A stretch of 60,927 bases of DNA from Candidatus Omnitrophota bacterium (GTDB lineage Bacteria; Omnitrophota; Gorgyraeia; JAZDFF01): positions 1 to 60,927 of the forward strand of contig JAZDFF010000005.1 of assembly GCA_043808095.1 (NCBI GenBank), in the 5' to 3' direction. This document shows, piece by piece, positions 2,892-60,084 of this stretch. The translations under genes and the position numbers were made by a program. Positions within the stretch are counted from its first letter, which is position 1, and each line of letters starts with the position of its first letter. The notes beneath the pieces were generated by a model, which saw only the letters and a list, made by a program, of their open reading frames with translations, had not been told where the DNA came from and ran no database searches.

Positions 2892-3104
2892 TTTACGAGC
2901 ACATAACTTAGCGAACGAAGTGAAGCTAAGTTATTAGTGCGAGTTAAACCCCCACACCAATTTTTGAAAATGTACGGGGTTTCTGTTATAAGGTTAATTT
3001 TATAATCAAAACTAATTCTATACCTCCAGCCCAATTACAAAAATTGGTGTAGGGGTAAAATTCGGCCAACAAGTTACGTCGTTAACACTCCGTAACTTTG
3101 GGCC
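2892..3104. repeat. 213-bp structured spacer between the oxidoreductase beta and gamma cistrons
   Basis: Hairpin ataacttagc...gctaagttat. An 18-bp inverted repeat with one mismatch, cccccacaccaatttttg (2949-2966) / caaaaattggtgtagggg (3038-3055), separated by ~70 nt. Third hairpin aagttacg...cgtaactt. Confidence 0.7.
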
Positions 3105-3836
3105 TCATTTTATTCTTCCCAGCGGAAACTCCTTCACCAGGTGTTCGTCTATCCATCTCATTGCATCCGTTGGATTTTTATTCCAGTATGTAGGGCAGCT
3201 GGATAAAACCTCTACCATTGCAAAACCCTTGTTTTCTATTTGACAAGTGAATGCCTCTTTTATCGCCTGCCTTGCCTCTCTGATCCTTTTAGCCGAAGTA
3301 ATGGTAACGCGGTTTAAATATTTTACCGAAGCAAGTGTGGCTAAAAGACCTAAGATATTTAAAGGAGGACCTTCTTTCTTTAAATCCCTGCCTGAAGGAG
3401 TAGTGGCGGTCTTCTGGTTTATCAAGGTTGTGGGCGCCATCTGGCCGCCGGTCATACCATAGACGGCATTATTAATAAAAATACAGGTAAGGTTTTCTCC
3501 GCGGTTTGCGGTGTGTATGGTTTCGGCAATTCCGATTGCAGCCAAGTCTCCGTCTCCCTGGTAGGTAAAGATGGTATTCTCGGGCCGCAGACGTTTCATC
3601 GCGGTTGCCACAGCCAGGGCCCGGCCATGGGCTGCCTCGCAACAATCAAAATCCCAGTAATCATAAGCAACAACCGCACAACCTACCGGACAAACAGCTA
3701 TAGTCTTATCTTGAATATCCAGTTCATCAATGACCTCACAGATTAATCTGTGGACAATCCCGTGGCCGCAGCCCGGGCAATAATGGGTCTTTACATTGCG
3801 TATTGATTTGGGACGAGAAAATATTTTTTTCATCAA
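3105..3836 (-). CDS. 2-oxoacid:ferredoxin oxidoreductase, beta (TPP-binding) subunit
   Basis: N-terminal CPGCGHG cysteine motif and GDGD...NN TPP-binding-type motif. Confidence 0.9.
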   Translation of the reverse strand: MMKKIFSRPKSIRNVKTHYCPGCGHGIVHRLICEVIDELDIQDKTIAVCPVGCAVVAYDYWDFDCCEAAHGRALAVATAMKRLRPENTIFTYQGDGDLAAIGIAETIHTANRGENLTCIFINNAVYGMTGGQMAPTTLINQKTATTPSGRDLKKEGPPLNILGLLATLASVKYLNRVTITSAKRIREARQAIKEAFTCQIENKGFAMVEVLSSCPTYWNKNPTDAMRWIDEHLVKEFPLGRIK

Positions 3837-3844
3837 AATTTCAT

Positions 3845-3891
3845 AATCCGCTATGTCCTGAGCGACCGAAGGGAGTCGAAGGGTTAACTCG
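3845..3891. repeat. GC-rich REP-like element (FDKLR/VRPELVEG-type family)
   Basis: cctgagcgaccgaagggagtcgaaggg. Shares the exact 16-mer gcgaccgaagggagtc (3860-3875) with 18332-18347 inside pheT. Confidence 0.7.
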
Positions 3892-4977
3892 TTAACCCGT
3901 CAACCCGACAACTTTCTTTATAATCTCTTCTTGCGTAGGAATTCCTCCGCCTGCCCTGCCAAGAAATTCTATCTTGGCTTTGCCGTTTACTGCCAATTTA
4001 ACATCTTCGACCATCTGGCCGCAGGACATCTCAATGACTAATATGGTTAATAGTTTATGGTTAATGATTAATGGTTTAAATACCTTATTAGGGAAAGGCC
4101 AGAGGGTTATCGGCCGGATGAACCCGATTTTTTTGCCTTTTTTTCTTAACTCTATTACCGCTGCCTTGGCAATACGGCTCATCATTCCGTAACTTACTAA
4201 AATAATTTCACTCTCGTCTAAAAATAAGCCTTCGTAGCGCTGTTCATCTTTCGTGATTCCTGTGTATTTATTCTGTAACCCGATATTTATCTCTTCTAAT
4301 TTTCCCTCGGCCAAATACAGCGAGCGGATGATGCGGGGTTTTCTATTTTTTGCCCCGGTCAGCGCCCACTTTTTTCCGTTCCTCGTCTCTCGTCCCTCGC
4401 CTGCCCTACGAAGCTTTAGCGTAGTAGAGTCTCTCATTTTGATTGGTTCCATCATTTGTCCCAGCATGCCGTCCCCTAAAATAATCACCGGCATGCGGTA
4501 TTTATCCGCCAGATCAAATGATAGCCTGGTCAAATCAAAGGCCTCCTGGACCGTTGAAGGAGCCAGGACAATACAATGATAGTCGCCGTGGCCGCCGCCT
4601 TTTGTCGCCTGGAAATAATCTGATTGAGCAGGCGAGATATTACCAAGGCCTGGGCCACCGCGCATAATATTAACTATCACTGCCGGCAATTCACAGCCTG
4701 CTAAGTAAGAAATCCCTTCCTGCTTTAGACTTATGCCTGGACTTGAAGAACTGGTTATTGCCCGCGCACCTATTGCTGCTGCACCAAAAACCATATTTAT
4801 AGCGGCAAGTTCTGATTCTGCCTGAATAAATACGCCGCCTACCCCAGGCATGTGCGCTGCCATATAAGCAGGGATTTCATTCTGGGGAGTAATGGGGTAT
4901 CCCGCATAGAAACGGCAGCCGGCTTGAATTGCCGCCTCAGCAATCGCCTCATTTCCAGTAATAAGAATCTTCTTCAT
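3892..4977 (-). CDS. 2-oxoacid:ferredoxin oxidoreductase, alpha subunit
   Basis: MKKILITGNEAIAEAAIQAGCRFYAGYPITP... is the typical alpha-subunit N-terminus. 361 aa. Confidence 0.9.
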   Translation of the reverse strand: MKKILITGNEAIAEAAIQAGCRFYAGYPITPQNEIPAYMAAHMPGVGGVFIQAESELAAINMVFGAAAIGARAITSSSSPGISLKQEGISYLAGCELPAVIVNIMRGGPGLGNISPAQSDYFQATKGGGHGDYHCIVLAPSTVQEAFDLTRLSFDLADKYRMPVIILGDGMLGQMMEPIKMRDSTTLKLRRAGEGRETRNGKKWALTGAKNRKPRIIRSLYLAEGKLEEINIGLQNKYTGITKDEQRYEGLFLDESEIILVSYGMMSRIAKAAVIELRKKGKKIGFIRPITLWPFPNKVFKPLIINHKLLTILVIEMSCGQMVEDVKLAVNGKAKIEFLGRAGGGIPTQEEIIKKVVGLTG

Positions 4978-5114
4978 AAAAGTTACTATAGGTTAATATG
5001 GGTTACTACATAAACTTTGACAACTGTTTTGTTACTAAAGTTACATTTGTAACCTTAGTAACCATTAGTAACAAACATGTCAAATTTTGCTTTATTTTAG
5101 TAACCATGGTAACT
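4978..5114. repeat. word-hairpin element, GTAAC/GTTAC family
   Basis: Arms ttgacaactgttttgttactaaagttaca (5017-5045) and tgtaaccttagtaaccattagtaacaaacatgtcaa (5048-5083) are near reverse complements. The element fills the whole delta-alpha spacer. Confidence 0.8.
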
Positions 5115-5324
5115 TCATTTAAAAACTTCAATACACCCATCCGGGCAAATTATGGCGCAAAAGCAACAGCCAGTACATAATTTGCCCGGCCCTTTTTTAG
5201 GGGCTGCGGGTCTTATCCCGAGCTTATTAAAAATCGGGCTGATTTCAATTAATTTCTGCGGGCAGGATTCTATGCACAAAAAACAGCCCTTACAACGATC
5301 TTTCTCTATTTTTATCTTGGCCAT
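5115..5324 (-). CDS. 2-oxoacid:ferredoxin oxidoreductase, delta subunit (2x[4Fe-4S] ferredoxin)
   Basis: Two CxxCxxCxxxCP-type motifs (CKGCFLCIESCP, CTGCCFCAIICP) in 69 aa. Confidence 0.8.
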   Translation of the reverse strand: MAKIKIEKDRCKGCFLCIESCPQKLIEISPIFNKLGIRPAAPKKGPGKLCTGCCFCAIICPDGCIEVFK

Positions 5325-5378: not shown

Positions 5379-5501
5379 GAATTGGTAAATTAGGAGATCG
5401 GGATTCGGTGATTAGGATATTTGGGGATTAGTAACAAAATCACTAATATCCCAATACCCTAATATCCAAAACCCAATACCCCAATCACCTAATTACCAAA
5501 T
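5379..5501. repeat. word-hairpin element, CCAAT/ATTGG family, nested in a CACAGAT outer repeat
   Basis: Left arm ggaattggtaaattaggagatcgggattcggtgattaggatatttggggattagt pairs with right arm actaatatcccaataccctaatatccaaaacccaataccccaatcacctaattacc. Outer pair ggttacacagat (~5360) / catctgtggatta (~5520). Confidence 0.8.
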
Positions 5502-7479: not shown

Positions 7480-7845
7480 TTATTCTTCGTCCTTAATCAG
7501 GCTTTGAACAATGGCCTCGATCCTGGTTTCGTCATTTTTCTTAAGACTCTTGAACTCGATGCCAGTATCAAATGTACCGTCTTTATCATCTTTTGTATCA
7601 GTATTTTTTACCACCCAGACAATCGTTCCATCACATTCAACTAATAGCTGGGAGTCTTTTAAGTCCATCTTTAATCTCACTTCTTCAAAGAGACCCAAAT
7701 TTTTGGGTAAGTTTACCGCAATGCCGCCACAACTGATATTTTCTGTCTTGGTTAAAAATTCCAAAAGATTTTGTTTCTTACGCACCCTGATATAGCAAGG
7801 ATAATTAATGCGAGGAAACCGCCGCCTATTTATTCCATCCCACAT
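7480..7845 (-). CDS. PilZ domain protein
   Basis: RRRFPRINYP...ISCGGIAV matches the PilZ RxxxR / (D/N)xSxxG motifs. Start trimmed to ATG 7845, which has a GGAGG 7 nt upstream. The longer track ORF (to 8019) runs through a repeat element. Confidence 0.7.
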   Translation of the reverse strand: MWDGINRRRFPRINYPCYIRVRKKQNLLEFLTKTENISCGGIAVNLPKNLGLFEEVRLKMDLKDSQLLVECDGTIVWVVKNTDTKDDKDGTFDTGIEFKSLKKNDETRIEAIVQSLIKDEE

Positions 7846-7885
7846 TTTAGCCTCCGTCTTTATTTTGTTTCTGCTAACTAATCCG

Positions 7886-8012
7886 ATTAAATGCGAAGCA
7901 CGAAATACGAATTTCGAAATCCTTCGACTCCGCTCTACTTCGACAGGCTCAGTATTCGTCCTGAGCGAGCTCGCCAGAGGCGAGCGAGTCGAAGGGTCGA
8001 TATTCGGATTTA
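7886..8012. repeat. GC-rich REP-like element (FDKLR/VRPELVEG-type family)
   Basis: Contains ttcgacaggctca (7939-7951 = 20263-20275) and gctcagtattcgtcctgag (7947-7965 = 20301-20319) as exact matches to the cluster near 20.3 kb. Confidence 0.85.
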
Positions 8013-8042
8013 TGTCCATTTTAAGTTGATAAAGCCTACTTA

Positions 8043-8825: not shown

Positions 8826-9021
8826 ATGAACGCTAATTTTCGCTAATCCTCCGCCACAATTCTTTTGCACCACAAATATTGGCGCATCCGCCAATTATTA
8901 TGGCGGAGGCGGACCCGCCAATCTTTGTGGCGGGAACGCTAATATTCGCGAATAAAAATATTAGCGTGAATTCGCGTTCCCTGCCTACCGCAGGCAGGGA
9001 TTCGTGTGAATTCGCGTTAAA
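8826..9021. repeat. word-hairpin element, CGAAT/CGCTAAT family with GC hairpin core
   Basis: Words cgctaat, cgcgaat and ccgccaat and their complements. GC core ccctgcctaccgcaggcaggg (8979-8999). Confidence 0.75.
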
Positions 9022-11209: not shown

Positions 11210-11271
11210 TTTCCCTCACTCCGTTCGGGAGTAACCAGATTACAGTAAACAGTAACCAGAAAAACTAATTT

Positions 11272-11703
11272 TTAATGTTTTCGTTTATCTTCTGGTTTCT
11301 GTACTCTGGTATCTGGTTTCTTGTCTTCTCCTTGCTTTTTATAATAATCTTCAATCGCTGCTTTTAAGGCCTGCTCAGCCAAGACCGAACAGTGCATCTT
11401 TATGGGTGGCAGTCCTCCTAAAGCATCGGCTACCGCCTTGTTTGAGATCTTTAGAACCTCGCTAATGGGCTTGCCTTTGATTAACTCGGTAACCATAGAG
11501 CTGGTGGCTATAGCGGCACCACATCCGAAAGTCTTAAACTTTGCATCAACTATTACGCCATTCTCTACTTTAATATATAACCTCAAGACGTCGCCACATA
11601 TGGGATTACCCACATTGCCGATGCCGCTTGCATCAGGTATCTCGCCGACATTGCGGGGATGAAGAAAATGATCCATGACCTGGGCAGAATAATTCTCAGG
11701 CAT
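11272..11703 (-). CDS. IscU/NifU-like Fe-S cluster scaffold
   Basis: GNPICGD...FKTFGCGAAIATSS...MHCSVLA carries the three conserved scaffold cysteines. Confidence 0.9.
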   Translation of the reverse strand: MPENYSAQVMDHFLHPRNVGEIPDASGIGNVGNPICGDVLRLYIKVENGVIVDAKFKTFGCGAAIATSSMVTELIKGKPISEVLKISNKAVADALGGLPPIKMHCSVLAEQALKAAIEDYYKKQGEDKKPDTRVQKPEDKRKH

Positions 11704-12361
11704 TCTTAATTACCTCCGCCGACAATGACCGGGGTTTCACCATCTTGGAGTAGTCTTTAGGCGGCTTTATCTTAAGCATCAATTCGGCCTTGCCCTTTTT
11801 CTCTAATTCCTTAAATATCAAAACCCAGGCGCAATCGCGCTCTTTGTCGACCTCGCATTTTCCTTTGTTCTGCCCGCCGCAGGGGCCATTTAAAAGGCCT
11901 TTTGAACATAAAGTAACCGGGCAGATCCCGCCGGTTATCTCTAAGACGCATTCACCGCAGGCTGAACATTTTTCTCTGAATATCCCCTGGCTATCAACGA
12001 TCGCGCCGAATAAGGTATCGCAGCCGGGTAAAACAAATAATTCCAGGCGGTCATTTTCTTTTACAGACTGGACTCCGGAACCGCAGGCCAAGATCAACAT
12101 CGCCTCGGACTCTTTGAGGGCATTTTTATTTTTGGCCATCTCTATCTTAAGCTGAGCTGCAACGCATGGGGCCTTGGGAATAATAAAGCCGGTTACAGTA
12201 TAGCCTTCTTTTTCTAAGAATTCTTTCATCTTTTTAATCTCTTCTTCGCCGCCTGTCTTACAAGTAGTTGCGCAGTCGCCGCAGCCGACTAAAAATATCT
12301 TTTTATAGGGGCCGCACATCCTTAAGATCTCATCCTGCGGTTTTTGTTTTGTGGCAATCAT
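11696..12361 (-). CDS. Cys-rich protein with methylenetetrahydrofolate reductase C-terminal-like (MTHFR_C) domain
   Basis: CSACGECVL...CPVTLCSKGLLNGPCGG resembles the MTHFR_C / MetV-type zinc-ribbon signature. Assigned from memory of the motif only. Confidence 0.55.
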   Translation of the reverse strand: MIATKQKPQDEILRMCGPYKKIFLVGCGDCATTCKTGGEEEIKKMKEFLEKEGYTVTGFIIPKAPCVAAQLKIEMAKNKNALKESEAMLILACGSGVQSVKENDRLELFVLPGCDTLFGAIVDSQGIFREKCSACGECVLEITGGICPVTLCSKGLLNGPCGGQNKGKCEVDKERDCAWVLIFKELEKKGKAELMLKIKPPKDYSKMVKPRSLSAEVIKNA

Positions 12362-13713
12362 TCTCGAGTTTCTCCTTTTTTCAGCCTCTCCATGCGCTGT
12401 TTAATCTTAGCCTCATATCCTATGTCTGTGGGCTCATAGTATTTTACTTTTTTACGGGTATATTTTTGTTTTACGTAATGGCCGGCGAAATCATGGGCAT
12501 ATTTGTAGCCTTTGCCATGGCCTAATTTATCCGCGCCCGGATAAGAGGCGTCTTTTAAATGCTCTGGGACTTCCTGGGTCTTTGCGCCTTTGATATCGCC
12601 AGTTGCTTTTTCAATGCCCAGGTATGCCGCATTAGACTTAGGGGCGCAGGCCACATAGACCGTAGCCTGGGCAAGGGGAATCCTTGCCTCAGGCAGGCCC
12701 ACAAATTCCGAAATCTGTAAGGCCGCATTGGCTAAGACCACGGCTAAGGGATCGGCATTGCCTACGTCTTCGCTTGCGGCAATGCAAATCCGACGGGCAA
12801 TAAACCGCGGGTCTTCTCCGGCATAAAGCATCTTTGCAAGCCAATACAATGCCGCATCCGGGTCAGAGCCGCGCATGGATTTTATAAAGGCCGATGCCGT
12901 ATCATAATGGCCGTCTTCGTCATGGTCATAGACAACTGCCTTTTTCTGGATGGATTCTTCGGCTACCTTTAAATCAAAATGTACGCGGCCGTCTTTTTTT
13001 CTGGGCGTGGTCAAAACGCCCAATTCCAGGGCATTCAGTGCCCGTCGCGCGTCGCCGTCTGATATGCGGCTTAAAAATTCCAATGCCTCTTTATCTGCTT
13101 CAACCGGGATATTGCCCAGGCCTCTTTTTTTATCAGAAAGTGCGCGCTCTAAAATTACCACTAACTCTTTTTCCCTAAGCGGTTTTAGTTCAAAGACCAG
13201 CGACCGGGATAGAAGCGCAGACACCAGAGAAAAAAACGGGTTATGCACTGTGGCGCCGATCAAGATAATATTCGCCGTCTCCACATCCGGGTTTAAGACA
13301 TCCTGCTGGGCCTTGTTAAAACGGTGAATCTCGTCGATAAAAAGGATGGTCTTGCCGCCGGTATTAGCTCTGCGGTTTTTGGCAGAAGAAATTATTTTAC
13401 GCAATTCCTCCACATTTGAGCCAACTGCATTGACGGGTTCAAAGTGTGAACCGGTTTTATTGGCGATACACAGGGCGAGACTCGTCTTACCGGTTCCCGG
13501 AGGGCCGTAAAGTATTAAAGAACTTAAGCGATCTGCTTCAATGGCGCGCCTTAGGAGCTTGCCTTTTCCTAAGATATGCTCCTGGCCGATAAACTCCTCA
13601 AGAGACTCAGGCCTCATCCGCGCGGCCAAAGGCTCATTTTTGGTTTGAGGCTCTTTTTTTGTAACAAACAGGTCTGAATTTCTATCTAAGAGGGCTTCGC
13701 TCTTCACTCTCAT
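12358..13713 (-). CDS. rarA: replication-associated recombination protein A (AAA+ ATPase)
   Basis: GPPGTGKTSLA Walker A, ILFIDEIHRFNK Walker B/sensor, and a C-terminal MgsA domain (YLGIEKA..PEHLKDASY..LGHGKGYKYAHD). Confidence 0.9.
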   Translation of the reverse strand: MRVKSEALLDRNSDLFVTKKEPQTKNEPLAARMRPESLEEFIGQEHILGKGKLLRRAIEADRLSSLILYGPPGTGKTSLALCIANKTGSHFEPVNAVGSNVEELRKIISSAKNRRANTGGKTILFIDEIHRFNKAQQDVLNPDVETANIILIGATVHNPFFSLVSALLSRSLVFELKPLREKELVVILERALSDKKRGLGNIPVEADKEALEFLSRISDGDARRALNALELGVLTTPRKKDGRVHFDLKVAEESIQKKAVVYDHDEDGHYDTASAFIKSMRGSDPDAALYWLAKMLYAGEDPRFIARRICIAASEDVGNADPLAVVLANAALQISEFVGLPEARIPLAQATVYVACAPKSNAAYLGIEKATGDIKGAKTQEVPEHLKDASYPGADKLGHGKGYKYAHDFAGHYVKQKYTRKKVKYYEPTDIGYEAKIKQRMERLKKGETRE

Positions 13714-13911
13714 TATAGGTTATTTGGGGCTGCGGGGGTTATTTAAAGTTAAAATGGAGTTTCAAAAAGCCTGCCTGCCCCGAGAAATTCGTAGAATTTC
13801 CGGGACTAAAGTCCTTGGAATTTTACAAAGTAAAATTCCTAAGGGCCGGTGAGGCAGACAACTTCATATAACCTCAAATAACATTAGATAACATCATTTA
13901 ACCCCTAAAAT
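13714..13911. repeat. ~190-bp compound hairpin upstream of rarA
   Basis: Outer arms aggttatttgggg..gggggttatttaaagtt versus aacttcatataacctcaaataac..atttaacccc. Inner arms gcctgcctgccccg.. versus ..ggccggtgaggcagac, with gaaattc/gaatttc words. Confidence 0.7.
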
Positions 13912-14076
13912 AAAAAATCCCCGCAACATGCCGTCGGTAGGATGTTTAGAACCCTTTTTCATCAAGTGGGAACTTCTCAATTCACCCAAGGGTGAAACGA
14001 AGTTAGGCTCCCTTTCCTTTTATGTTGGTTCAATACACATTGCTCTACCGACGCACACGGCAGGGATAAGTTTCTA
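13912..14076 (-). ncRNA. candidate ~165-nt rod-shaped small RNA (6S-like architecture)
   Basis: On the minus strand, a ~21-bp closing helix (CCCUGCCGUGUGCGUCGGUAG / CUACCGACGGCAUGUUGCGGGG) is followed by AUUUUUUAUUUU. There is an internal ~13/14-nt bubble and an apical stem GGGA..AACUUC..CACCC-UUG-GGUG..GAAGUU..CCC. It is preceded by a near-consensus promoter and no ORF is present. Confidence 0.45.
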
Positions 14077-14081
14077 AACTA

Positions 14082-14110
14082 AATATAGCACATCGCAAAA
14101 TAAAAATCAA
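14082..14110 (-). promoter_or_regulatory. sigma70-like promoter TTGATT-17-TATATT driving the candidate sRNA
   Basis: On the minus strand, the -35 TTGATT is at 14110-14105 and the -10 TATATT at 14087-14082, with a 17-nt spacer. Confidence 0.5.
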
Positions 14111-14160
14111 GGGCTATTATAAATTAATGACTGATGCCTCCTGCCTGCTAACCATTTTAA

Positions 14161-18605: not shown

Positions 18606-18687
18606 CGTACACGAATTTTCACGAATCCCTGCCTGCAGCAGGCAGGAAACACGAATTTTCACGAATAAATTCGTGTTAATTCGTGCA
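18606..18687. repeat. word-hairpin element, CGAAT family with GC hairpin core
   Basis: An exact 18-mer direct repeat acacgaattttcacgaat (18609-18626 and 18649-18666) flanks cctgcctgcagcaggcagg (18628-18646). This is followed by cacgaataaattcgtg. Confidence 0.85.
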
Positions 18688-20243: not shown

Positions 20244-20485
20244 TCGGGATAGCAAGTAGTGGTTCGACAGGCTCACCATCCCTCGAATACATTCGACTAT
20301 GCTCAGTATTCGTCCTGAGTTTATCGAAGGACGAACCATCCCGAGCGACCCATTCGACAAGCTCAGGGTCATCCTGAACAAGCGAAGCGCGTCGAAGGAC
20401 GATGTCGAGGGACAAGTAGCGAGTGCAAATATTATTTCTTTGCGCTTTTGCGGTGTTTTCTCATTTCTTTGCGCTTTTGCGGTTA
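20244..20485. repeat. tandem cluster of GC-rich REP-like units (FDKLR/VRPELVEG-type) plus CGCAAA words
   Basis: At least three units of the form ttcgac..gctcag..cctgag..tcgaagg (20260-20410), then ctttgcgcttttgcggt twice (20436-20480). All three frames translate to the junk peptides FDKLRV, IRPEFIEG and SLSNG. Confidence 0.85.
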
Positions 20486-24335: not shown

Positions 24336-24344
24336 AGCCCTCTT

Positions 24345-42112: not shown

Positions 42113-42115
42113 TAA

Positions 42116-42234
42116 AATGCAAACATCAAAAATCAAATATCAAATATCAAAATGACATAGCAAAATTTAAATATTTTAAATAATTTTGCATTTTGGACTT
42201 TAAATTTTGATTTTTGCATTTTGATTTTTGAATT
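42116..42234. repeat. word-hairpin element, CAAAAT/ATTTTG family (copy 1)
   Basis: Left arm aatgcaaacatcaaaaatcaaatatcaaatatcaaaatgacatagcaaaat, right arm attttgcattttggactttaaattttgatttttgcattttgatttttgaattt. Fills the gyrB-gyrA spacer. Confidence 0.85.
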
Positions 42235-42258
42235 TACGACGAACGAAGTGAGGAGGAC

Positions 42259-44712: not shown

Positions 44713-44829
44713 AATATCCAATAACCAATTTCCAATAAATACCAATAAAATCCCAATGACCAATTTTCCAATTGGAGATTGGATAATTGGACATTAATTG
44801 GGATTTGGTGATTGGTGAATTGGAAATTA
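44713..44829. repeat. word-hairpin element, CCAAT/ATTGG family
   Basis: aatatccaataaccaatttccaataaataccaataaaatcccaatgaccaattttccaatt | ggagattggataattggacattaattgggatttggtgattggtgaattggaaatt. Confidence 0.85.
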
Positions 44830-44856
44830 AAGTTTTACTTTTAAGTTAAACATCCT

Positions 44857-44960
44857 GACCCCATCGTCTAGCCTGGTTAGGACAAGAGCTTTTTCCCGCC
44901 GAGCCAAAGGCGAGGCGGGATCCCGACCTCGCTTTCAGCTCGGTCGGGACAAGCTCTCGA
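44857..44960 (+). pseudogene. disrupted partial copy of tRNA-Glu (nt 1-48) with a 56-nt double-hairpin insert in the anticodon loop
   Basis: 44857-44893 is identical to tRNA-Glu nt 1-37 (45206-45242). 44950-44960 (caagctctcga) equals 45243-45253. The insert at 44894-44949 forms CCCGCC..GGCGGG and TCCCGACC..GGTCGGGA hairpins. The T-arm and 3' acceptor strand are absent. Confidence 0.75.
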
Positions 44961-44965
44961 GGACT

Positions 44966-45220
44966 ATGTATTATGTTTATGTGTTAGAAAACAATAAAGG
45001 GAGACATTATATTGGCAGTTGTGTAAATGTAGAAGAAAGGCTGAAACGACACAACCAAAATAGCGTCAGATCCACCAAGAATAAAGGGCCTTTTACAATA
45101 GCGTATCAAAAAGAATTCAGCACTAGAAGAGAAGCGAGAATTAGAGAGAACCAAATCAAGCGCTACAAAAATAGCGGCTATTTGAGAAGGTTAATAAATA
45201 GACAGGACCCCATCGTCTAG
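44966..45220 (+). CDS. small stand-alone GIY-YIG nuclease-domain protein (84 aa)
   Basis: YYVYVLENNKGRHYIGSCVNVEERLKRHN...REARIRENQIK shows the GIY..YIG..R..H..E..N pattern. The TAG stop (45218-45220) lies in the D-arm of the intact tRNA-Glu. Confidence 0.8.
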   Translation: MYYVYVLENNKGRHYIGSCVNVEERLKRHNQNSVRSTKNKGPFTIAYQKEFSTRREARIRENQIKRYKNSGYLRRLINRQDPIV

Positions 45221-45279
45221 CCTGGTTAGGACAAGAGCTTTTCAAGCTCTCGACACCGGTTCAAATCCGGTTGGGGTCG
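45206..45279 (+). tRNA. tRNA-Glu (anticodon UUC)
   Basis: Acceptor GACCCCA/UGGGGUC, anticodon arm AGAGC-UUUUCAA-GCUCU, T-arm ACCGG-UUCAAAU-CCGGU, discriminator G. No CCA encoded. Confidence 0.9.
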
Positions 45280-45367: not shown

Positions 45368-45422
45368 CTATCCGCCTACGTCAAAGTGTTTTCACCTTTG
45401 ACTTCGGCGAGACTTCACTAAA
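45368..45422. repeat. word element in the glmS leader (CACCTTTGACTTC family)
   Basis: See 36200-36362. It is preceded by gagtagcgagtagagag (45334-45350), which is the exact reverse complement of 28109-28125. Confidence 0.8.
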
Positions 45423-45441
45423 TTAAAAATTAAAGTGCTCA

Positions 45442-49391: not shown

Positions 49392-49404
49392 AACAGCCCA
49401 TAAT

Positions 49405-49545
49405 AAAATCAAAAATCAAACTGCAAAAATCAAAATCACAGACCAAAATTCAAAATTTAATTCCTTCTGTGCTTTTGACATTTGGTTTTTATTAATTTTT
49501 TAAATTTTGATATGTCATTTTGATATTTGATTTTTGATATTTTAA
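49405..49545. repeat. word-hairpin element, CAAAAT/ATTTTG family (copy 2, upstream of rsmI)
   Basis: Exact 21-mer caaaaatcaaactgcaaaaat (49410-49430 = 50253-50273) and exact 30-mer tgtcattttgatatttgatttttgatattt (49513-49542 = 50350-50379), both shared with copy 3. Confidence 0.95.
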
Positions 49546-49551
49546 TTTATT

Positions 49552-50217
49552 ATGTTATACATCATCTCTACCCCCATCGGCAATCTAAAAGACATCACCC
49601 TGCGCGCCATCGAGACCTTAAAGGGTGTGGATTTTATCGCCTGTGAGGATACGCGTAAAACCTCAATCCTCCTAAATCACTGCCAGATTAAAAAACCCCT
49701 CCTAAGTTACTATAGTTATAATCAGATTAAACGCGGCGAGGAAATCTTAAGACTCCTAAATTCCGGTAAATCAATTGCTTTGGTCTCTGATTCAGGGACC
49801 CCCGGAATAAGCGATCCCGGAACCCAGCTGATTAAATTAGCCATAGAAAATAATATCCCCCTGACAGTAATTCCCGGGCCAACTGCATTTGTAGCGGCAT
49901 TAAGTCTGTCGGGCTTGCCTACTCATAAATTCGCCTTCGAAGGATTCCTGCCCAAAAAAGAAGGGCAGCGCAAAAAGAGGCTCTCAGAACTCTCAAAAGA
50001 AAAACGCACCGTAATTCTATACGAGTCGCCTTATCGGATTAAAAGATTATTGGGAGAAATTTTAGGGCTGATGGGTGACAGGGAAATTGCGGTCTTGCGG
50101 GAACTGACCAAGAAATTTGAAGAGGTAAAACGCGGCCTGGTATCCGGATTAATCAGCCATTTTGCAAAAGTAAAGCCCCGCGGCGAGTTTATTGTGGTAA
50201 TTTCTGGGGGGAAATAG
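49552..50217 (+). CDS. rsmI: 16S rRNA (cytidine1402-2'-O)-methyltransferase
   Basis: LYIISTPIGNLKDITLRAIETLKGVDFIACEDTR is the typical RsmI N-terminus. Confidence 0.9.
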   Translation: MLYIISTPIGNLKDITLRAIETLKGVDFIACEDTRKTSILLNHCQIKKPLLSYYSYNQIKRGEEILRLLNSGKSIALVSDSGTPGISDPGTQLIKLAIENNIPLTVIPGPTAFVAALSLSGLPTHKFAFEGFLPKKEGQRKKRLSELSKEKRTVILYESPYRIKRLLGEILGLMGDREIAVLRELTKKFEEVKRGLVSGLISHFAKVKPRGEFIVVISGGK

Positions 50218-50248
50218 TATAATGCCCCTGTAAAGTAAATAAAGGTTT

Positions 50249-50383
50249 AATGCAAAAATCAAACTGCAAAAATTAAAATTACAAATCAAAATGCAAAGAT
50301 TTAAAAACATATTGTTTTGCCACGGGATTTAACATTTTGAACTTTACATTGTCATTTTGATATTTGATTTTTGATATTTGCAT
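50249..50383. repeat. word-hairpin element, CAAAAT/ATTTTG family (copy 3, downstream of rsmI)
   Basis: See copy 2. Same orientation as copy 2. Confidence 0.95.
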
Positions 50384-50468
50384 TTACAGGTTGAATGCAG
50401 CTGTTATTTAGTTGACAAAGCAGTATAATAAGTAAAATCATCAATGCGTTCCTTATTTAATTTAAAAC

Positions 50469-51622: not shown

Positions 51623-51666
51623 AAAAATAGGTTGCCCCATGTTACAATAGGCTACAAAGAGGTTAA

Positions 51667-52083
51667 ATGAGGTTACATAAAAGAGAAGCGGCTTATGAAA
51701 AATTAAAATTCTATCAAGATATCTGCCAGATTCGTCGCCTGATTTATAAGATTACCGAGCGTTTTTCAAAAAGCCATTTAAGACTTGTTTCGCAGATGAG
51801 AGATGCTGCTCGTTCTGCAAAACAGAATATCCGCGAGGGGTATAAAAAAGGAACGATTGGAGAGTTTATCCACAGTATCAAGATAAGGCAAGGTTCTCTG
51901 GAAGAGCTAAGCGGTGATATTGAAGACTGTCAAGAAGATGGGTTGGTTACTAAAGAGGAATTCAGCCAATTAGCTAAATTTTTTCGTAGTGCAGATTATC
52001 TATCATCGCGCTATCTGGAATCATTGTATAAAATGGAACGCAATAAAACCTGGAAGACCCCGGGCAGTAGATTTAAAAGGTAA
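51667..52083 (+). CDS. four-helix-bundle protein (23S rRNA intervening-sequence protein / Avd-like family)
   Basis: LKFYQDICQIRRLIYKITERFSKSHLRLVSQMRDAARSAKQNIREGY...IRQGSLEEL matches the TIGR02436-type pattern (..SQlrRAa.Si..NIaEG...A.GSl.El). Confidence 0.75.
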   Translation: MRLHKREAAYEKLKFYQDICQIRRLIYKITERFSKSHLRLVSQMRDAARSAKQNIREGYKKGTIGEFIHSIKIRQGSLEELSGDIEDCQEDGLVTKEEFSQLAKFFRSADYLSSRYLESLYKMERNKTWKTPGSRFKR

Positions 52084-52130
52084 CCTTAGGTAACTTTAGA
52101 GTAACCTCAAGTAACATCTAGTAACTTACC
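52081..52130. repeat. GTAAC-word tract flanking the four-helix-bundle gene
   Basis: taaccttaggtaactttagagtaacctcaagtaacatctagtaactt uses the same word family as 4978-5114. Related words (gttacaataggctacaaagaggttaa) lie just upstream of the ORF. Confidence 0.75.
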
Positions 52131-52731: not shown

Positions 52732-52815
52732 GAAGATGATTATCCCGAATGATGTTATTCTTTGTAGTATCTCTTCGGGATCCCGTTTTTAATTTAATTG
52801 TTGGGCGGGAAAAGA

Positions 52816-52857
52816 ATTAGTCATTTATTCGACATTCGTCATTAGGAATTCGACATT
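52816..52857. repeat. ATTAGTCAT/TCGACATT word element
   Basis: Exact 14-mer attagtcatttatt (52816-52829 = 60028-60041). The word ttcgacatt occurs twice. Confidence 0.8.
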
Positions 52858-52866
52858 AATAAGAGT

Positions 52867-54853: not shown

Positions 54854-54940
54854 ATGTTACAGTTGAATAAAATAATTACGAGGTCCCGAAAATCTATTCG
54901 GGGCCTTTTATTTTGCCCGGGGGCCTATGATGAGCTTTAA
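54854..54940 (+). CDS. possible 28-aa leader peptide spanning the pyr attenuator
   Basis: TAAGGAGAG SD 4 nt before ATG 54854. The [31 protein letters not shown] runs through the terminator hairpin and ends 14 nt inside pyrR, in another frame. Confidence 0.3.
54881..54914 (+). terminator. intrinsic terminator/attenuator in the pyrR leader
   Basis: A 10-bp stem AGGUCCCGAA / UUCGGGGCCU (loop AAUCUA) followed by UUUAUUUU, located 13 nt upstream of the pyrR ATG. Confidence 0.65.
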
Positions 54941-56632: not shown

Positions 56633-56771
56633 AAATTACAAATCCCAAATCCCAAATCACAAACAAATCTCAATTCCGAAATCCCAATGACCAAAACAAA
56701 AGCTTTTGTTTGTAATTTTGGTATTTGATATTGTATATTGTTTGTTATTTGTGGTTTGTTTATTGTAATTT
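56633..56771. repeat. word-hairpin element, CCCAAAT/ATTTG(G) family
   Basis: aaattacaaatcccaaatcccaaatcacaaacaaatctcaattccgaaatcccaatgaccaaaacaaaagc | ttttgtttgtaattttggtatttgatattgtatattgtttgttatttgtggtttgtttattgtaattt. Confidence 0.8.
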
Positions 56772-56799: not shown

Positions 56800-58089
56800 A
56801 TGAAACTATTAATCAAAAACGGACATGTAGTTGACCCTGTAAATAAGCTAAACGAAGTCCGCGATATTTTAATCGTAGGCACGCATATTTCTAAGGTGGC
56901 CGGGGATATAGAGGATAAAGCCGATAAAATAATTGACGCCAGCGGCAAAATCGTTATGCCCGGCATAATTGACATGCATGTGCACCTGCGCGAGCCTGGT
57001 CGGGAAGACAAAGAGACTATTGAGACTGGAACCAAAGCCGCTCTAAGAGGCGGGGTTACCTCAGTCCTGGCCATGCCCAATACTGAGCCGGCCATGGATT
57101 CTGTTGAGAACGTCCGTCAGTTAAAAGATATTATTAAAAAAAGCGCCTGCGCCAATGTTTACATTGCCGGTGCTATTACCAAGGCGCGAGCCGGCAAAGA
57201 ACTGACTGATATAGCCAAACTAAAAAAAGAAGGCGTAATTGCCATAACTGATGACGGCGCCTCTGTAGACGATGAAAAAATACTTAAAGAGGTATTAAAA
57301 TTAGCCAAGAAGGAAGGCATTTTAGTCATCTGTCACTGCGAAGACAAGGCCATCACCAGAAGCGGAGTAATTAATCTGGGGATAATGTCTACACGCCTGG
57401 GTTTAAAAGGAACACCCCGGGAGTCAGAATATAAAAGGGTCCAAAGAGATATTCAGTTAGCGCAAAAACTAGACGCACCTATCCATATCGCCCATGTCAG
57501 TTGCAAGGAATCTATTGAGATTATCGCGCAGGCCAAAAAAATTGGCCTAAGAGTGACGGCTGAGACTGCGCCTCATTATTTCTGTTTTTGCGATGAGGAT
57601 CTCTTTGAATATAATACCAATCTAAAAGTCAATCCTCCGCTAAAGGCCAAAGAAGATGTCCAGGCGATTAAAGAGGCACTAAAAAATGGGATAATCGATG
57701 TGATTGCCTCGGATCACGCCCCACATACGGAAAATGAAAAAGATGTAGAGTTTGAGCGCGCAGAATTTGGGGCTATCGGACTTGAGACGGAACTGGCAGC
57801 CTCAATCAGCGAGCTAATCATTGGCAAGATACTTGATTGGCCGGCGTTGGTAGAAAGATTATCTACAAACCCCGCTAAGGTCCTTGGGCTAAAGACCAAG
57901 GGCGCCTTGTCCGTTGGCCTTGACGCGGATATAATTGTTGTCGACCCGCAAAAAGAATGGCTGGTTAAAAAAGATGGTTTTCAATCCAAAGCCAAAAACT
58001 CTCCCTTTATCGGCCGCACTTTAAGAGGAATAGTCGAATATACTATCTGTAACGGGGAAATTGCCTATATAAACGCGAATAATCGCTAA
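56800..58089 (+). CDS. pyrC: dihydroorotase
   Basis: PGIIDMHVHLREPG...DHAPH metal-binding motifs. 429 aa. Confidence 0.9.
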   Translation: MKLLIKNGHVVDPVNKLNEVRDILIVGTHISKVAGDIEDKADKIIDASGKIVMPGIIDMHVHLREPGREDKETIETGTKAALRGGVTSVLAMPNTEPAMDSVENVRQLKDIIKKSACANVYIAGAITKARAGKELTDIAKLKKEGVIAITDDGASVDDEKILKEVLKLAKKEGILVICHCEDKAITRSGVINLGIMSTRLGLKGTPRESEYKRVQRDIQLAQKLDAPIHIAHVSCKESIEIIAQAKKIGLRVTAETAPHYFCFCDEDLFEYNTNLKVNPPLKAKEDVQAIKEALKNGIIDVIASDHAPHTENEKDVEFERAEFGAIGLETELAASISELIIGKILDWPALVERLSTNPAKVLGLKTKGALSVGLDADIIVVDPQKEWLVKKDGFQSKAKNSPFIGRTLRGIVEYTICNGEIAYINANNR

Positions 58090-58171
58090 TCAAACGCGAA
58101 TTTACGCTAATTTAAGACGAATAGTCACGAATTTTTATTCGTGAAAATTAGTGTGTAATTTGTGAAAATTT
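58086..58171. repeat. word-hairpin element, CGAAT/CGCTAAT family
   Basis: cgctaatcaaacgcgaatttacgctaat...tcacgaatttttattcgtgaaaattagtgtg. Confidence 0.75.
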
Positions 58172-58633
58172 GTGAATCATAAATTTATCCTAACCCGTGA
58201 ATTAGGCAGGCTCGCCAAATGGCTGCGCATTATCGGGTATGATACTTTTTATTATCAAGCAGGAAACCCCAGTACCCTAATAATTTCGGCGCTACGCCAA
58301 GAGCGCATAATACTCACCCGTAATACCAGAATCGGCTCTCATCCAGGATTAAAGATTATCAGGATAAACAGCGACTTCGTAAAAGAACAGCTCGGGCAAG
58401 TCCTCAAAGATCTTAATATATCCCCGGATAAAAATTTGATGTTTTCCCGCTGCATAATCTGTAATGAAGAATTGATAAAGGCACAGAAAAACAGTATAAT
58501 GGATAAGGTCCCGGAGTTTGTTTATAAGACCAATGCGGATTTTGTCAGCTGTCCCAGGTGTAAACGAATATACTGGCGGGGCACGCATTGGGGAAACGTT
58601 AAAGAAATAATTGCTAAATTGTCAAATTGTTAA
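58172..58633 (+). CDS. Mut7-C RNase-domain (DUF82) protein
   Basis: LGRLAKWLRIIGYDT and a C-terminal zinc ribbon CIICNEEL...CPRCKRIYWRGTHW. Confidence 0.7.
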   Translation: MNHKFILTRELGRLAKWLRIIGYDTFYYQAGNPSTLIISALRQERIILTRNTRIGSHPGLKIIRINSDFVKEQLGQVLKDLNISPDKNLMFSRCIICNEELIKAQKNSIMDKVPEFVYKTNADFVSCPRCKRIYWRGTHWGNVKEIIAKLSNC

Positions 58634-58685
58634 ATTGTTTTCAATTTAGCAGTTTAGCCATTTAACAGTTTAACAATAATTTAAT

Positions 58686-59927
58686 ATGCAATTTATTGCC
58701 GACTTTCATATCCACTCCAAATATTCACGTGCCACCAGCCGTGACATGGATACCCAGCATTTGTCCGACTGGGCCAGGCTTAAAGGCATATCCCTTTTAG
58801 GTAGCGGCGACTTCACCCACCATCTCTGGCTTGAGGAATTAAAATCCCATCTCGAGCCTCTAAATAACGGTTTATTTATCTATAATAACGTTAATTTTAT
58901 TCTGACCGCCGAGATAAGCAGTATCTATTCCAAGCGCGGCAAGACCTATCGCGTCCACACGGTCATATTGGCACCCTCTTTTAAGGTTGTAGATCAAATA
59001 AATCACCATCTTTCCAGTATCGGCAATCTCGCCTCCGATGGCAGGCCTATCTTAGGATTAGACGTGCAGGAACTGACGCGGATTGTCTTGGATATCTCGC
59101 CCGAGTGCTTAATTGTGCCCGGACACATCTGGACTCCTTGGTTTAGCCTATTCGGTTCGATGTCAGGTTTCAACAGCATTGAGGCCTGTTTTGAAGACCA
59201 GGCCCAAAATATTTTTTGTTTGGAGACCGGTTTATCGTCGGATCCTGGTATGAACTGGCGTTGGTCAGCCCTGGATAGATTTAGCCTGATCAGTAATTCC
59301 GACAGCCATTCTCCGTCTAAGATCGGCCGCGAGGCCAATGTCTTTAATTGCGACCTGGACTATAAAACTATCATCGAGGTCTTAAAGACCAAAGACAAAA
59401 AAAGATTTTTATACACTGTTGAGTTTTTCCCCGAGGAAGGTAAATACCATTTTGACGGGCATCGGCTCTGCGGGGTGAGGTTTTCGCCTAAAGAGTCCAA
59501 GGAGCATAGAAATACCTGCCCCAAATGTAAAAAACCCTTAACTATCGGCGTAATGAACCGCGTAGATCAACTTGCCGACAGAGAAGAAGGTTTTAGGCCG
59601 GATAACGCTATCCCGTTTAAAAATCGCATCCCCTTGAATGAGATAATTGCCGAGGCAAAGGGCCTGACCAAGGCCACCCAGGCCGTAGAAAGGGAATATT
59701 TTTCCATTATCAGTAAATTCGGCAACGAATTTGAGGTCCTGGCAAACGTACCCAAAGAGGATCTAAAAAAATCAATTAATCCGCGCATTGCCGACGGGAT
59801 TCTTAGGGTACGCGAAGGAAGGGTAAAAATTCTTCCCGGCTTTGACGGAGAATACGGCAGTATCCAGATCTTTGGCCTGGATGATAAAAAAGAAGAAAGC
59901 GGCGAGAAGCAGATGAGCTTCTTCTAA
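58686..59927 (+). CDS. endonuclease Q-like PHP-domain protein (TIGR00375-type)
   Basis: MQFIADFHIHSKYSRATS PHP N-terminus and an internal zinc finger CPKCKKPLTIGVMNRV. Confidence 0.65.
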   Translation: MQFIADFHIHSKYSRATSRDMDTQHLSDWARLKGISLLGSGDFTHHLWLEELKSHLEPLNNGLFIYNNVNFILTAEISSIYSKRGKTYRVHTVILAPSFKVVDQINHHLSSIGNLASDGRPILGLDVQELTRIVLDISPECLIVPGHIWTPWFSLFGSMSGFNSIEACFEDQAQNIFCLETGLSSDPGMNWRWSALDRFSLISNSDSHSPSKIGREANVFNCDLDYKTIIEVLKTKDKKRFLYTVEFFPEEGKYHFDGHRLCGVRFSPKESKEHRNTCPKCKKPLTIGVMNRVDQLADREEGFRPDNAIPFKNRIPLNEIIAEAKGLTKATQAVEREYFSIISKFGNEFEVLANVPKEDLKKSINPRIADGILRVREGRVKILPGFDGEYGSIQIFGLDDKKEESGEKQMSFF

Positions 59928-59934
59928 CTCAGAT

Positions 59935-60078
59935 AAATAAATGTTAAAAGTAAATGTCCAATTCCTAATTTCTAATGTCGAATAAATTCCTAATAACTAA
60001 TTTTAAAATTAAATTTGAAATTGATTCATTAGTCATTTATTAGGATTTAGGAATTAGTAATTCGAAATTTATCATGGG
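59935..60078. repeat. word-hairpin element, ATTAGTCAT / AATTCCTAA family
   Basis: aatgtccaattcctaatttctaatgtcgaataaattcctaataactaat...cattagtcatttattaggatttaggaattagtaattcgaaatt. Confidence 0.8.
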
Positions 60079-60084
60079 GTCAAG

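Follow-up and report, generated by a model that had tools for sequence, protein, structure and literature searches.

Spacer palindromes of an Omnitrophota contig include hairpins that look like gene-less copies of S23p (PF05635) cassettes

Many intergenic spacers of Candidatus Omnitrophota contig JAZDFF010000005.1, which was analyzed over its entire length of 60,927 nt (GC content 44%) and is here called the window, are occupied by long imperfect palindromes with arms of short repeated words. Their best explanation, which we consider probable, is that the spacers were colonized by several non-autonomous palindrome families, the best-resolved of which are copies, lacking an open reading frame (ORF), of a cassette encoding S23p (PF05635). 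From alignment to cassette ends, at least seven spacer hairpins look like such gene-less copies. A first-pass annotation of the window had proposed a genome-wide system resembling miniature inverted-repeat transposable elements (MITEs) or repetitive extragenic palindromes (REPs), and this agrees with our finding of dispersed non-autonomous palindromes spanning multiple phyla. Its view that the kind is wholly undescribed is not supported, since the ends of S23p cassettes align colinearly with at least three families, whose architecture is like that of intervening sequences (IVSs) and not that of REPs with their associated transposase RAYT. That annotation also overlooked the S23p cassette, a GIY-YIG gene and a LAGLIDADG gene.

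Results

S23p genes between inverted word arrays

An intact S23p/IVP (intervening sequence protein) cassette is located at 51658-52119 (plus strand), in sense orientation inside a pseudopilin gene cluster. Its 138-amino-acid ORF (51667-52083) matches PF05635 (Pfam, E 2e-17), TIGR02436 (NCBIfam, E 2e-14) and PDB entry 2GSC (E 5e-7). The ORF is framed by a 26-nt inverted repeat (51658-51683/52094-52119, 77% complementary), the left arm of which spans the ATG, with GTTAC words upstream and a GTAAC array at 52078-52130 (period 10 according to Tandem Repeats Finder, TRF). The first lead was another locus, L008, where an A-rich CAAAAT arm, a 128-amino-acid ORF and a T-rich arm form one unit and the start ATG of the ORF corresponds to the TGTCAT of the CAAAAT arm. 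This ORF falls into the same families (PF05635/TIGR02436; "23S rRNA intervening sequence protein" or four-helix-bundle protein), and its closest structures, 2RLD and 2GSC, have five chains each. All four S23p genes in the Omnitrophota loci analyzed lie inside word palindromes, of the families CAAAAT, CCAAT, ATGAAT and, in the window, GTAAC, and the S23p paralogues of L008 carry differing words (CAAAAT vs. CCAAT).

The association is also found across phyla. S23p homologues were collected at 72 loci from GTDB representative genomes, the hosts being Omnitrophota, many Patescibacteria, Bdellovibrionales, Flavobacteriales, Phycisphaerae, a cyanobacterium and others, and 66 of these loci could be scored for complementarity of the 150 nt upstream vs. 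the 150 nt downstream. The median flank score was 44.5 at S23p loci, compared with 18 for shuffled flanks and 16 for a control of 470 ordinary ORFs from unselected Omnitrophota loci; 64 of the 66 loci (97%) exceeded the 95th percentile of this control (Mann-Whitney p = 1.6e-37). The arms abut the ORF, ending at a median of -4 nt from the ATG and beginning at a median of +4 nt past the stop codon, and the period was 7 in 36 of 39 strongly periodic cassette arms (17 upstream, 19 downstream). Inspection by eye placed a "four helix bundle protein" gene between inverted heptamer arrays on two Nostocales plasmids (GTCGGAG/CTCCGAC in N. punctiforme pNPUN01 and TAATTCG/CGAATTA in Dolichospermum pAfl69), and around the A. 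cylindrica copy it showed a more complex layout, with AGTAAAA heptamers arrayed in both orientations. On plasmid pANACY.01 of Anabaena cylindrica PCC 7122, an S23p-like gene (155585-155932, L242) is situated between cas2 and cas1 of a CRISPR locus.

S23p was the only ORF found between matching arms, and no transposase ORF was present between arms at any locus examined. A composite transposon was considered and rejected, as the genes between neighboring CAAAAT copies are, S23p excepted, ordinary housekeeping genes. Cassettes that bear the S23p ORF are co-oriented with both neighbor genes at 44 loci and opposed to both at 2, and ORF-less CAAAAT hairpins are co-oriented in 18 cases vs. 13 opposed. 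These data fit an orientation-neutral insertion in which the ORF is kept only where host transcription reads through.

Spacer hairpins colinear with cassette ends

Colinear scoring compared the hairpins of the window with 69 cassettes, the best score of shuffled controls serving as the null. Each of the three CAAAAT copies is colinear with cassette L168: one half corresponds, at 81-89% identity, to positions -27 to +27, a segment running from the leader through the ATG into the first codons, and the other half to the 3′ end plus the downstream arm (80-94%), while cross-wise comparisons stayed at background. The copy in the gyrB|gyrA spacer (42113-42236, plus strand, cassette-sense) has 89-90% identity to the other two, and both of its halves are colinear with cassette ends (score 113 vs. 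null ≤62); its DNA fold has a z value of -2.7 (z values of individual elements refer to dinucleotide-preserving shuffles, those given as spacer z to mononucleotide shuffles). The copy in the cofD|rsmI spacer (49399-49554, minus strand), with a cassette polarity antisense to the host genes, has 57-nt arms that are 81% complementary, and matches L168 with its 5′ half at -27 to +20 (89%) and its 3′ half at 377-432 (86%; score 125, null ≤67). It carries a 30-mer (49513-49542) that recurs across phyla and, read as its reverse complement, equals the cassette leader followed by ATG ACA. The third copy, downstream of rsmI (50226-50425, minus strand), is a long form of about 200 nt with an extra outer inverted repeat, and is colinear with L168 positions -25 to +27 and 388-446.

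Two CCAAT and two ATTAG hairpins also scored above the shuffled null. The CCAAT/ATTGG hairpin after gyrA (44713-44830; z -5.1) is colinear with the ends of a CCAAT-armed S23p cassette (L008 7083-7451; score 77, null ≤45), as is the CAAATCC/CCAAT hairpin in the pyrB|pyrC spacer (56633-56771; z -4.9; period 7) with cassette ends (70 vs. ≤46). The ATTAG (CTAAT/ATTAG) hairpin at 59951-60071 (z -2.3) is colinear with the S23p cassettes L214 and L236 of Nomurabacteria (scores 88 and 80, null ≤54) and retains CTAATGTCnAATAAA, the cassette start codon and three further codons, in common with the Nomurabacteria cassette. An ATTAG-type hairpin in the ndk|parB spacer (32415-32551; z -4.2) is likewise colinear with L236 (67 vs. 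≤50). Judged by this colinearity, it is likely, in our estimation with good confidence, that the CAAAAT, CCAAT and ATTAG hairpins derive from S23p cassettes. The GGGGTAG, CGAAT, CGCAAA, GTAAC (4980) and 2927-type elements had no parent among the 69 cassettes.

Extent and families of hairpins in the window

A palindrome-alignment scan yielded 18 hairpins scoring at least 45, compared with 0-2 in block-shuffled sequence, and 14 of them fall in the non-coding part of the window, which makes up about 13-16%. RNAfold z values of -3 or lower (mononucleotide shuffles) were obtained for 22 of 31 spacers of at least 100 nt and for 2 of 13 spacers of 40-99 nt. The initial claim of a hairpin in almost every gap above about 50 bp is therefore valid only for gaps of at least about 100 nt and fails for shorter ones. 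Of 18 delimited elements, 15 were matched in stability by at most 4 of 200 dinucleotide-preserving shuffles (z -2.0 to -7.1); two weak folds under these shuffles were 22940-23050 (z -1.1) and 39497-39610 (z -1.75). No hairpin was found in the dnaA|dnaN spacer of the window and six related genomes. Arm periods reported by TRF in the window are mostly 7 (also 14 and 21), and some are 8 and 10.

Seven of eight exact repeats listed by the first-pass annotation are identical as described; the remaining pair, a 16-mer at 3860-3875 and 18332-18347, is off register by 2 nt, and the shared string is the 14-mer GCGACCGAAGGGAG. The grouping into families was sound for CAAAAT (three copies, 84-90% identity across 111-129 nt) and GGGGTAG (two copies, 89% across 101 nt), which are full-length families, but the CCAAT, GTAAC, CGAAT, CGCAAA and ATTAG copies have only blocks of 16-59 nt in common. 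The CCAAT and ATTAG groups merge gradually into one another, and the GC-rich ctcagg/gtcgaagg set is a small, separate palindrome type that is not built from words. Elements do lie between cistrons of conserved operons, namely por delta-alpha-beta-gamma, rny-ymdB, pheS-pheT, infC-rpmI-rplT, gyrB-gyrA and pyrB-pyrC. Their supposed occurrence inside coding sequences mostly reflects ORFs that were extended upstream of the true start, as judged from Pfam domain starts (PilZ 7480-8019, ymdB, pheT and pheS), or are spurious (19719-20489), and one real case was left, at 11290-11321.

Dispersal and turnover across genomes

As the genome-wide reading had anticipated, shared k-mers occur beyond the window: the exact CAAAAT 30-mer was found at 48 loci in many other species-representative genomes, mostly labeled Omnitrophota or Planctomycetia, with a few labeled WOR-3, Elusimicrobia, Nitrospirae or Edwardsbacteria. 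Most of these loci have a variable loop set between an A-rich arm and a T-rich one, and some keep the right arm only. The loci labeled Nitrospirae, Edwardsbacteria, WOR-3 and Elusimicrobia are L005, L022, L031, L032, L045 and L047, some of them right-arm-only; in these metagenome-assembled genomes (MAGs) assigned to other phyla, the 30-mer was either transferred horizontally from phylum to phylum or stems from Omnitrophota contigs that were binned wrongly. A phage vector for CAAAAT was rejected, the 30-mer being absent from IMG/VR.

Several CAAAAT copies hold nested small GC hairpins or entire word hairpins. The long form 50226-50425 has 98.5% identity to L014 and 97.5% to L037, both of them copies from another MAG, and 89-91% to L028 and L006, and the flanking genes differ. 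Elements of the CCAAT, ATTAG and 2927 types match non-orthologous spacers in L052 and L085: 56633-56771 has 77% identity to L052 19635-19799, a non-orthologous site, and 59951-60071 has 74% identity to the gyrA|tRNA-Glu spacer of L085. At orthologous spacers, on the other hand, elements differ or are missing. Seven genomes compared at gyrB|gyrA have five different elements or none there: the window has a CAAAAT element, L049 a CAAAAT-like one, L051, L052, L053 and L085 have other word or GC hairpins, and L050 has no spacer between the two genes. The closest relative, L085 (GyrA 88%), carries an element different from that of the window. The element after gyrA (44713-44830) is missing from this site in L050-L052, and L085 has an ATTAG-type element there. 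Two genomes that are about 93% identical in DNA contain unrelated word hairpins between the same pair of tRNA genes. Because of their presence at non-orthologous sites, the differing or absent elements at orthologous spacers, and the nesting, the spacer elements behave as mobile DNA, and we regard it as very likely that they are dispersed, mobile-type palindromes.

The density of long hairpins is 2.3 per 10 kb in the window vs. a median of 0.48 per 10 kb in 39 unselected Omnitrophota loci, among which density varies and many more word families are present. GGGGTAG gave only a single, chance-level match in GTDB representative genomes and appears restricted to the lineage of the window.

Two established kinds of mobile palindrome have to be weighed against this background. 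Ordinary MITEs, i.e., derivatives of an insertion sequence with a DDE transposase that have terminal inverted repeats and target-site duplications, resemble the spacer elements in being non-autonomous, in having inverted ends and in occurring in both orientations, and TA is found on both sides of some CAAAAT copies. However, the ends of the CAAAAT element are AT-rich, and flanking TA, seen in about 40% of copies, is near background and not above the expectation for such a context. Between the arms at the loci examined there is no transposase ORF, only S23p. A DDE origin is distinctly unlikely in our view.

Classical REP/REPIN elements mobilized by a RAYT (IS200/IS605-like TnpA-REP) encoded elsewhere in the genome would, like the elements observed, be extragenic, palindromic, multi-copy and nested. 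Small GC hairpins of REP-like appearance are in fact enriched in the window (CTGCC..GGCAG, 7 observed vs. 0.46 expected; CCCGC..GCGGG, 6 vs. 1.7). The long elements, in contrast, measure 100-200 nt and have word-array arms, compared with 20-40 nt for REPs, and three of the families are colinear with S23p cassettes instead. No Y1 transposase (Y1_Tnp) is encoded among the 60 window ORFs, for which the earlier statement that the window lacks a transposase, RAYT or integrase proved true. We consider mobilization of this kind very unlikely.

RNA-level properties and points against a cassette origin

The word core of 4-5 nt is nearly invariant across copies and genomes and the 2-3 linker bases are variable, and the stem is accordingly a string of short helices broken by mismatches. 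Sites resembling intrinsic terminators (a U tract preceded by a GC-rich stem of 5-14 bp) are not located at the word hairpins, and a canonical terminator lies separately at 54880-54907. A strand asymmetry of G·U vs. C·A pairs was absent in window spacers, cassettes and ORF-less copies. Promoters, like terminators, showed no enrichment. A candidate promoter at the end of the long form was dismissed, since its TTGACA..TATAAT motifs have a 6-nt spacing and are not conserved.

A number of observations weigh against the proposed cassette origin and mobility. The inverted repeat of the window cassette itself is modest and ranks 6 of 57 window genes, and about two thirds of the window elements are without an identified cassette parent. 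Arm words make up the initial ~27 nt of the ORF itself, so that insertion of an ORF into a pre-existing hairpin loop is conceivable in place of a hairpin derived by deletion. CAAAAT is rare in unselected Omnitrophota loci, with two arm matches (≤5 mismatches) in 715 kb. About 45 aligned ends and the junctions in close relatives revealed neither a consistent target-site duplication nor a clean empty site, and close relatives show replacement of the entire spacer and not a simple insertion. None of the elements is accompanied by an enzyme known to act as a transposase, and S23p, reported to be a homopentameric toroid, has no known function (PMC4990558). At the RNA level, the linker positions of the two arms vary independently and display no compensatory covariation, in a test for which the right-arm 30-mer was fixed by the search and only the remaining columns were informative. 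Strand stability is unbiased, with the sense strand favored in 12 of 28 window spacers and no bias in cassettes or ORF-less copies. Finally, the elements are not canonical terminators (30 terminator-like sites vs. 23.2 ± 4.8 expected).

The last of these points also bear on the alternative that the hairpins are not mobile DNA but locally evolved functional RNA structures, such as terminators, attenuators, and processing or stabilizer hairpins. The position between cistrons is kept despite replacement of the sequence (gyrB|gyrA in six of seven genomes) and the elements are excluded from the probable oriC spacer, as might be expected of functional structures. Nevertheless, unrelated loci and other genomes contain the same sequences, and neither terminator enrichment nor a sense-strand bias nor an Rfam family was found; above the gathering threshold, an Rfam scan of the window recovered only six tRNAs and 6S RNA and matched no element. 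The compensatory changes between arms that the first-pass annotation had put forward as a check were likewise not found, and arms that do not covary imply that a perfect stem is not being maintained. Locally evolved RNA structures are in our assessment highly improbable. The related suggestion of RNA-level punctuation is plausible only by analogy with the excision of IVSs by RNase III, but gained no support from our own tests for RNA-level selection, i.e., sense vs. antisense stability, compensatory change and match to canonical terminators.

A further alternative is that the word arrays are mainly binding arrays for a ring-shaped S23p pentamer, with hairpin potential as a by-product of the inverted layout. 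Conserved cores with variable linkers, arms that do not covary, the distinct words of the S23p paralogues within L008, and the five-chain structures and reported toroid are all consistent with such arrays. Co-inheritance of a gene with its flanks accounts equally well for the pairing of words and proteins, however, and the window has CAAAAT, CCAAT and ATTAG hairpins without a cognate S23p gene within 61 kb. We consider this function rather unlikely, and colonization by cassette-related palindromes stays our preferred explanation.

Other elements of the window

An ATTAG-type half element with a single arm (52810-52866) has 42 nt at 86% identity and a 14-mer in common with 59951-60071, and no match among the 69 cassettes. 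The GTAAC/GTTAC hairpin in the por delta|alpha spacer (4980-5115; z -4.9) has its best match in the GTAAC-armed cassette of the window itself, but the score of 45 is at null level; a similar element is present in L115. For the ATTGG/CCAAT hairpin at 5382-5499 (palindrome score 64; z -3.8; period 8), in which the G/T-rich arm comes first, none of the 69 cassettes matched. A composite of three hairpins fills the por beta|gamma spacer (2892-3104), and its central hairpin (2927-3076, minus strand; z -3.3) resembles, at 71% identity, the gyrB|gyrA spacer element of L085. The two are oriented alike with respect to transcription and have the CTCGTAAAATG end in common, and relatives occur in L099 and L139. 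The sequence CGACGA(A/G)CGAAG(T/C)GAGGAG follows word hairpins of differing families, at 42237-42258 in the window, in the gyrA leaders of L049, L052 and L053, and upstream of tRNA-Glu in L085. It provides the Shine-Dalgarno sequence of gyrA and recurs, reverse-complemented, as the loop of the third hairpin in the 2927-type composite.

The CGAAT/CGCTAAT composite of the rny|ymdB spacer (8829-9021; spacer z -8.0) contains the nested small GC hairpins CCCTGCCTAC..GCAGGCAGGG and CCCGCC..GGCGGG. It has 57 nt at 88% identity, nested hairpin included, in common with the CGAAT hairpin of the pheS|pheT spacer (18606-18687; z -7.1), in which CCCTGCCTGCAGCAGGCAGG is nested and across which the pheT ORF is over-extended. 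Another CGAAT/CGCTAAT hairpin occupies the pyrC|Mut7-C spacer (58071-58171; z -2.9; TRF periods 21 and 10). The two GGGGTAG copies, a (22940-23050, right arm degraded) and b (27174-27288; palindrome score 77; z -5.1; period 10), have a 23-mer in common. Words of the CGCAAA/TTTGCG type occur with CCCGC..GCGGG hairpins in the rpmI|rplT spacer (24145-24344; spacer z -7.0) and with small GC hairpins, not as a single long hairpin, in the dciA|gyrB spacer (39497-39610). Other word hairpins are TGTTATAT/AGCAATTT in the trkA|rplT spacer (23730-23792; z -3.0) and AATTGTTA/TTTAGCAG at 58605-58682 (TRF period 8; z -2.2), which has a weak colinear match to cassette L223 (57 vs. ≤48). The ACAGTAA/TCTGGTA heptamer hairpin at 11230-11321 (32-nt arms, 78% complementary; z -5.9) is the element that extends into a gene: its right arm (11290-11321) codes the last ~16 codons of the NifU ORF, a frame of 143 residues whose NifU_N domain extends to residue 125.

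GC-rich ctcagg/gtcgaagg palindromes (20244-20420) lie together with CGCAAA words in a long non-coding stretch upstream of pheS (19942-20485), and the ORF 19719-20489 that spans it has no Pfam match. Another such palindrome is located upstream of the PilZ gene (7903-8011; palindrome score 51), where the PilZ domain begins at residue 64 of the over-extended ORF 7480-8019. CTCAG..CTGAG cores are found at 7948, 20302 and 29177, and a 19-mer of the 20244-20420 region recurs at 7947-7965. A module of about 60 nt (CCGCCTnCGTCAAAG..TTCACCTTTGACTTC..ACTTCAC) is common to 36200-36400 and 45368-45441, directly 5′ of the dnaA and glmS starts, and the dnaA copy has a nested CCTGCCTGCCGGCAGG hairpin.

Genomic context

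The window surrounds the probable oriC region of an Omnitrophota bacterium that is uncultured. Its GC skew switches sign at about 35 kb, with minus-strand genes left of this position (yidC, jag, parA and parB) and plus-strand genes right of it (dnaA, dnaN, dciA, gyrB and gyrA), and with dciA (39141-39491) coming after dnaN. The oriC is probably one of two spacers, the 660-nt spacer upstream of dnaA (35741-36400), which has TTACACAGA repeats (35968-35997) and a strong promoter-like site (36126-36153), or the dnaA|dnaN spacer (37751-37913), the counterpart of which in L053 has DnaA-box-like repeats. The closest GyrA, at 88% identity, stems from one metagenomic contig (L085); the next matches, more than 100 proteins, are about 75% identical, and those with names belong mostly to Candidatus Omnitrophota. 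The species is outside the GTDB representative set, in which the best DnaN match is 61% identical, and exact-protein look-ups of window genes retrieved no conspecific genome. The 6S RNA (RF00013, 53.3 bits; 13914-14069, minus strand) is encoded inside a 447-nt spacer (13714-14160) flanked by an mgsA-like gene (12358-13713) and an O-antigen ligase/TPR gene.

Other insertion-like features adjoin tRNA genes. A truncated 5′ copy of tRNA-Glu within 44855-45279 has two small GC hairpins at the anticodon-loop position and is followed by an 84-amino-acid GIY-YIG ORF (44966-45220; Pfam E 6e-15) that overlaps the intact tRNA-Glu (45206-45279). The layout is kept in the closest relative (L085/L086) and missing in L050-L052, and looks like a small element targeting tRNA-Glu. 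The end of tRNA-Leu(UAA) (28145-28228) is overlapped by a minus-strand ORF of 244 amino acids (28199-28933) that contains a LAGLIDADG_3 domain, and a tRNA-like T-arm/acceptor fragment is present in the spacer 28934-29040. We read this tentatively as a second insertion of the homing-endonuclease type adjoining a tRNA; Rfam identified no group I intron at the site. In L108 (49-226), a tRNA-Glu-like sequence that occurs twice in tandem contains a GC hairpin pair of about 52 nt (TCCCGC..GCGGGATCCCGCC..GGCGGGA) at the anticodon-loop position, which may represent an IVS-like insertion in a tRNA gene. The gyrB genes of L049 (~12717-15200) and L052 (~12711-15280) are about 1.3 kb longer than that of the window, with a break in the tblastn match at residue 457, which suggests an intein without counterpart in the window.

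Discussion

The parent element would be a small selfish cassette in which a gene for an S23p/Avd-like four-helix-bundle protein of about 120 amino acids occupies the loop of a palindrome, the arms of which are inverted tandem word arrays. ORF-less, MITE-like copies would arise most simply via internal deletion of the cassette. The spacer elements are presumably co-transcribed with host operons, and their arms would then pair into a long imperfect stem, cleavable by RNase III as in IVSs, that would punctuate polycistronic mRNAs. Processing by RNase III, argued from this analogy, is conceivable though somewhat short of an even chance. That S23p itself binds the words or drives their spread is a more speculative proposal, which we think rather unlikely. 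A bolder form, to which we give similarly little credence, is that each S23p/Avd-like pentamer recognizes, as a nucleic-acid-binding partner, the particular words of the heptamer arrays that flank its gene, every word being bound by one subunit in the manner of TRAP, and that the cassettes form a so far unrecognized pan-bacterial class of selfish elements.

The closest described system is the IVS that bears an ORF (Coxiella burnetii and Leptospira; Warrier et al. 2016, PMC4990558). That of Coxiella, regarded as selfish, has a terminal stem of 28 bp and is excised by RNase III, and three tandem GACAGAT heptamers precede an S23p ORF with a poor Shine-Dalgarno sequence; the paper treats its origin and mobility as unexplained and mentions an old hypothesis that the ORF encodes a mobility component (PMC4990558). 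The cassettes share with IVSs the stem-forming terminal inverted repeats, the PF05635 ORF in the loop, the poor Shine-Dalgarno sequence and the tandem heptamers immediately upstream of the ORF, although the words of the window cassette have a period of 10. Further parallels are a sporadic distribution, horizontal transfer, the lack of a transposase and the existence of ORF-less short stem-loops in other bacteria. IVSs, however, reside in helices 9, 25 and 45 of 23S rRNA, whereas the window copies lie between protein and tRNA genes, with no rRNA in the window, and the spacer elements are very dense (about 25 per 61 kb), have arms that are word arrays throughout and comprise many word families.

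Comparison with other dispersed repeats is also instructive. Like MITEs (Correia/NEMIS, ERIC, RUP and Nezha), the elements are short, non-autonomous, folded end to end, dispersed in spacers, presumably co-transcribed and found in either orientation, and the CAAAAT, CCAAT and ATTAG families have both termini in common with a longer gene-bearing element. They differ in that the putative parent's ORF encodes a protein of the four-helix-bundle type, about 120 amino acids long and without known catalytic activity, and no recognizable transposase, that no target-site duplication was seen, and that the arms are tandem word arrays. With REPs, bacterial interspersed mosaic elements (BIMEs) and the REPIN-RAYT system, they share extragenic palindromes of high density, nested or mosaic and placed between cistrons, but the word hairpins are 60-200 nt long vs. 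palindromes of 20-40 nt and the 60 window ORFs include no RAYT; the small GC-rich hairpins alone are REP-like. Rickettsia palindromic elements are palindromic repeats able to extend into coding sequence, as does 11290-11321 in the NifU tail, although in-frame insertion is exceptional here and there is no sequence relation.

Short tandemly repeated repetitive (STRR) sequences are tandem heptamers in the spacers of heterocystous cyanobacteria, often arranged as inverted arrays with tiny GC hairpins nested inside; such heptamers and small dispersed repeats were reportedly described by Mazel in 1990 and Elhai in 2008. The repeat type is the same as that seen here, and S23p-like genes with inverted heptamer arrays are present on Nostoc, Dolichospermum and Anabaena plasmids, although the host in our case is an Omnitrophota bacterium and the words differ. 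We know of no description that links STRRs to S23p genes. A literature search, incomplete for older papers, returned no account of Omnitrophota spacer palindromes, of intergenic palindromic PF05635 cassettes or of a link between STRRs and four-helix-bundle proteins, and as far as the searched literature shows the S23p cassette was previously reported only inside 23S rRNA genes.

These results offer a concrete candidate parent for dense palindromic repeats that lack a transposase, and extend the S23p/IVS cassette from its rRNA niche to ordinary operons across many phyla. In practice, such repeats inflate ORF calls, through false N-terminal extensions and repeat-encoded "proteins", and break MAG assemblies. 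If S23p pentamers do bind their own flanking arrays, gene-less derivatives would explain 23S rRNA IVSs, cyanobacterial STRR arrays and the spacer hairpins of Omnitrophota and the candidate phyla radiation (CPR) together. For the STRR heptamer arrays, the cassettes suggest an origin open to testing in cyanobacteria that can be cultured. What PF05635 proteins do outside diversity-generating retroelements, and how IVSs arose and move, are questions of about 30 years' standing, and the picture of a cassette with its derivatives would make both testable in Nostoc or Anabaena.

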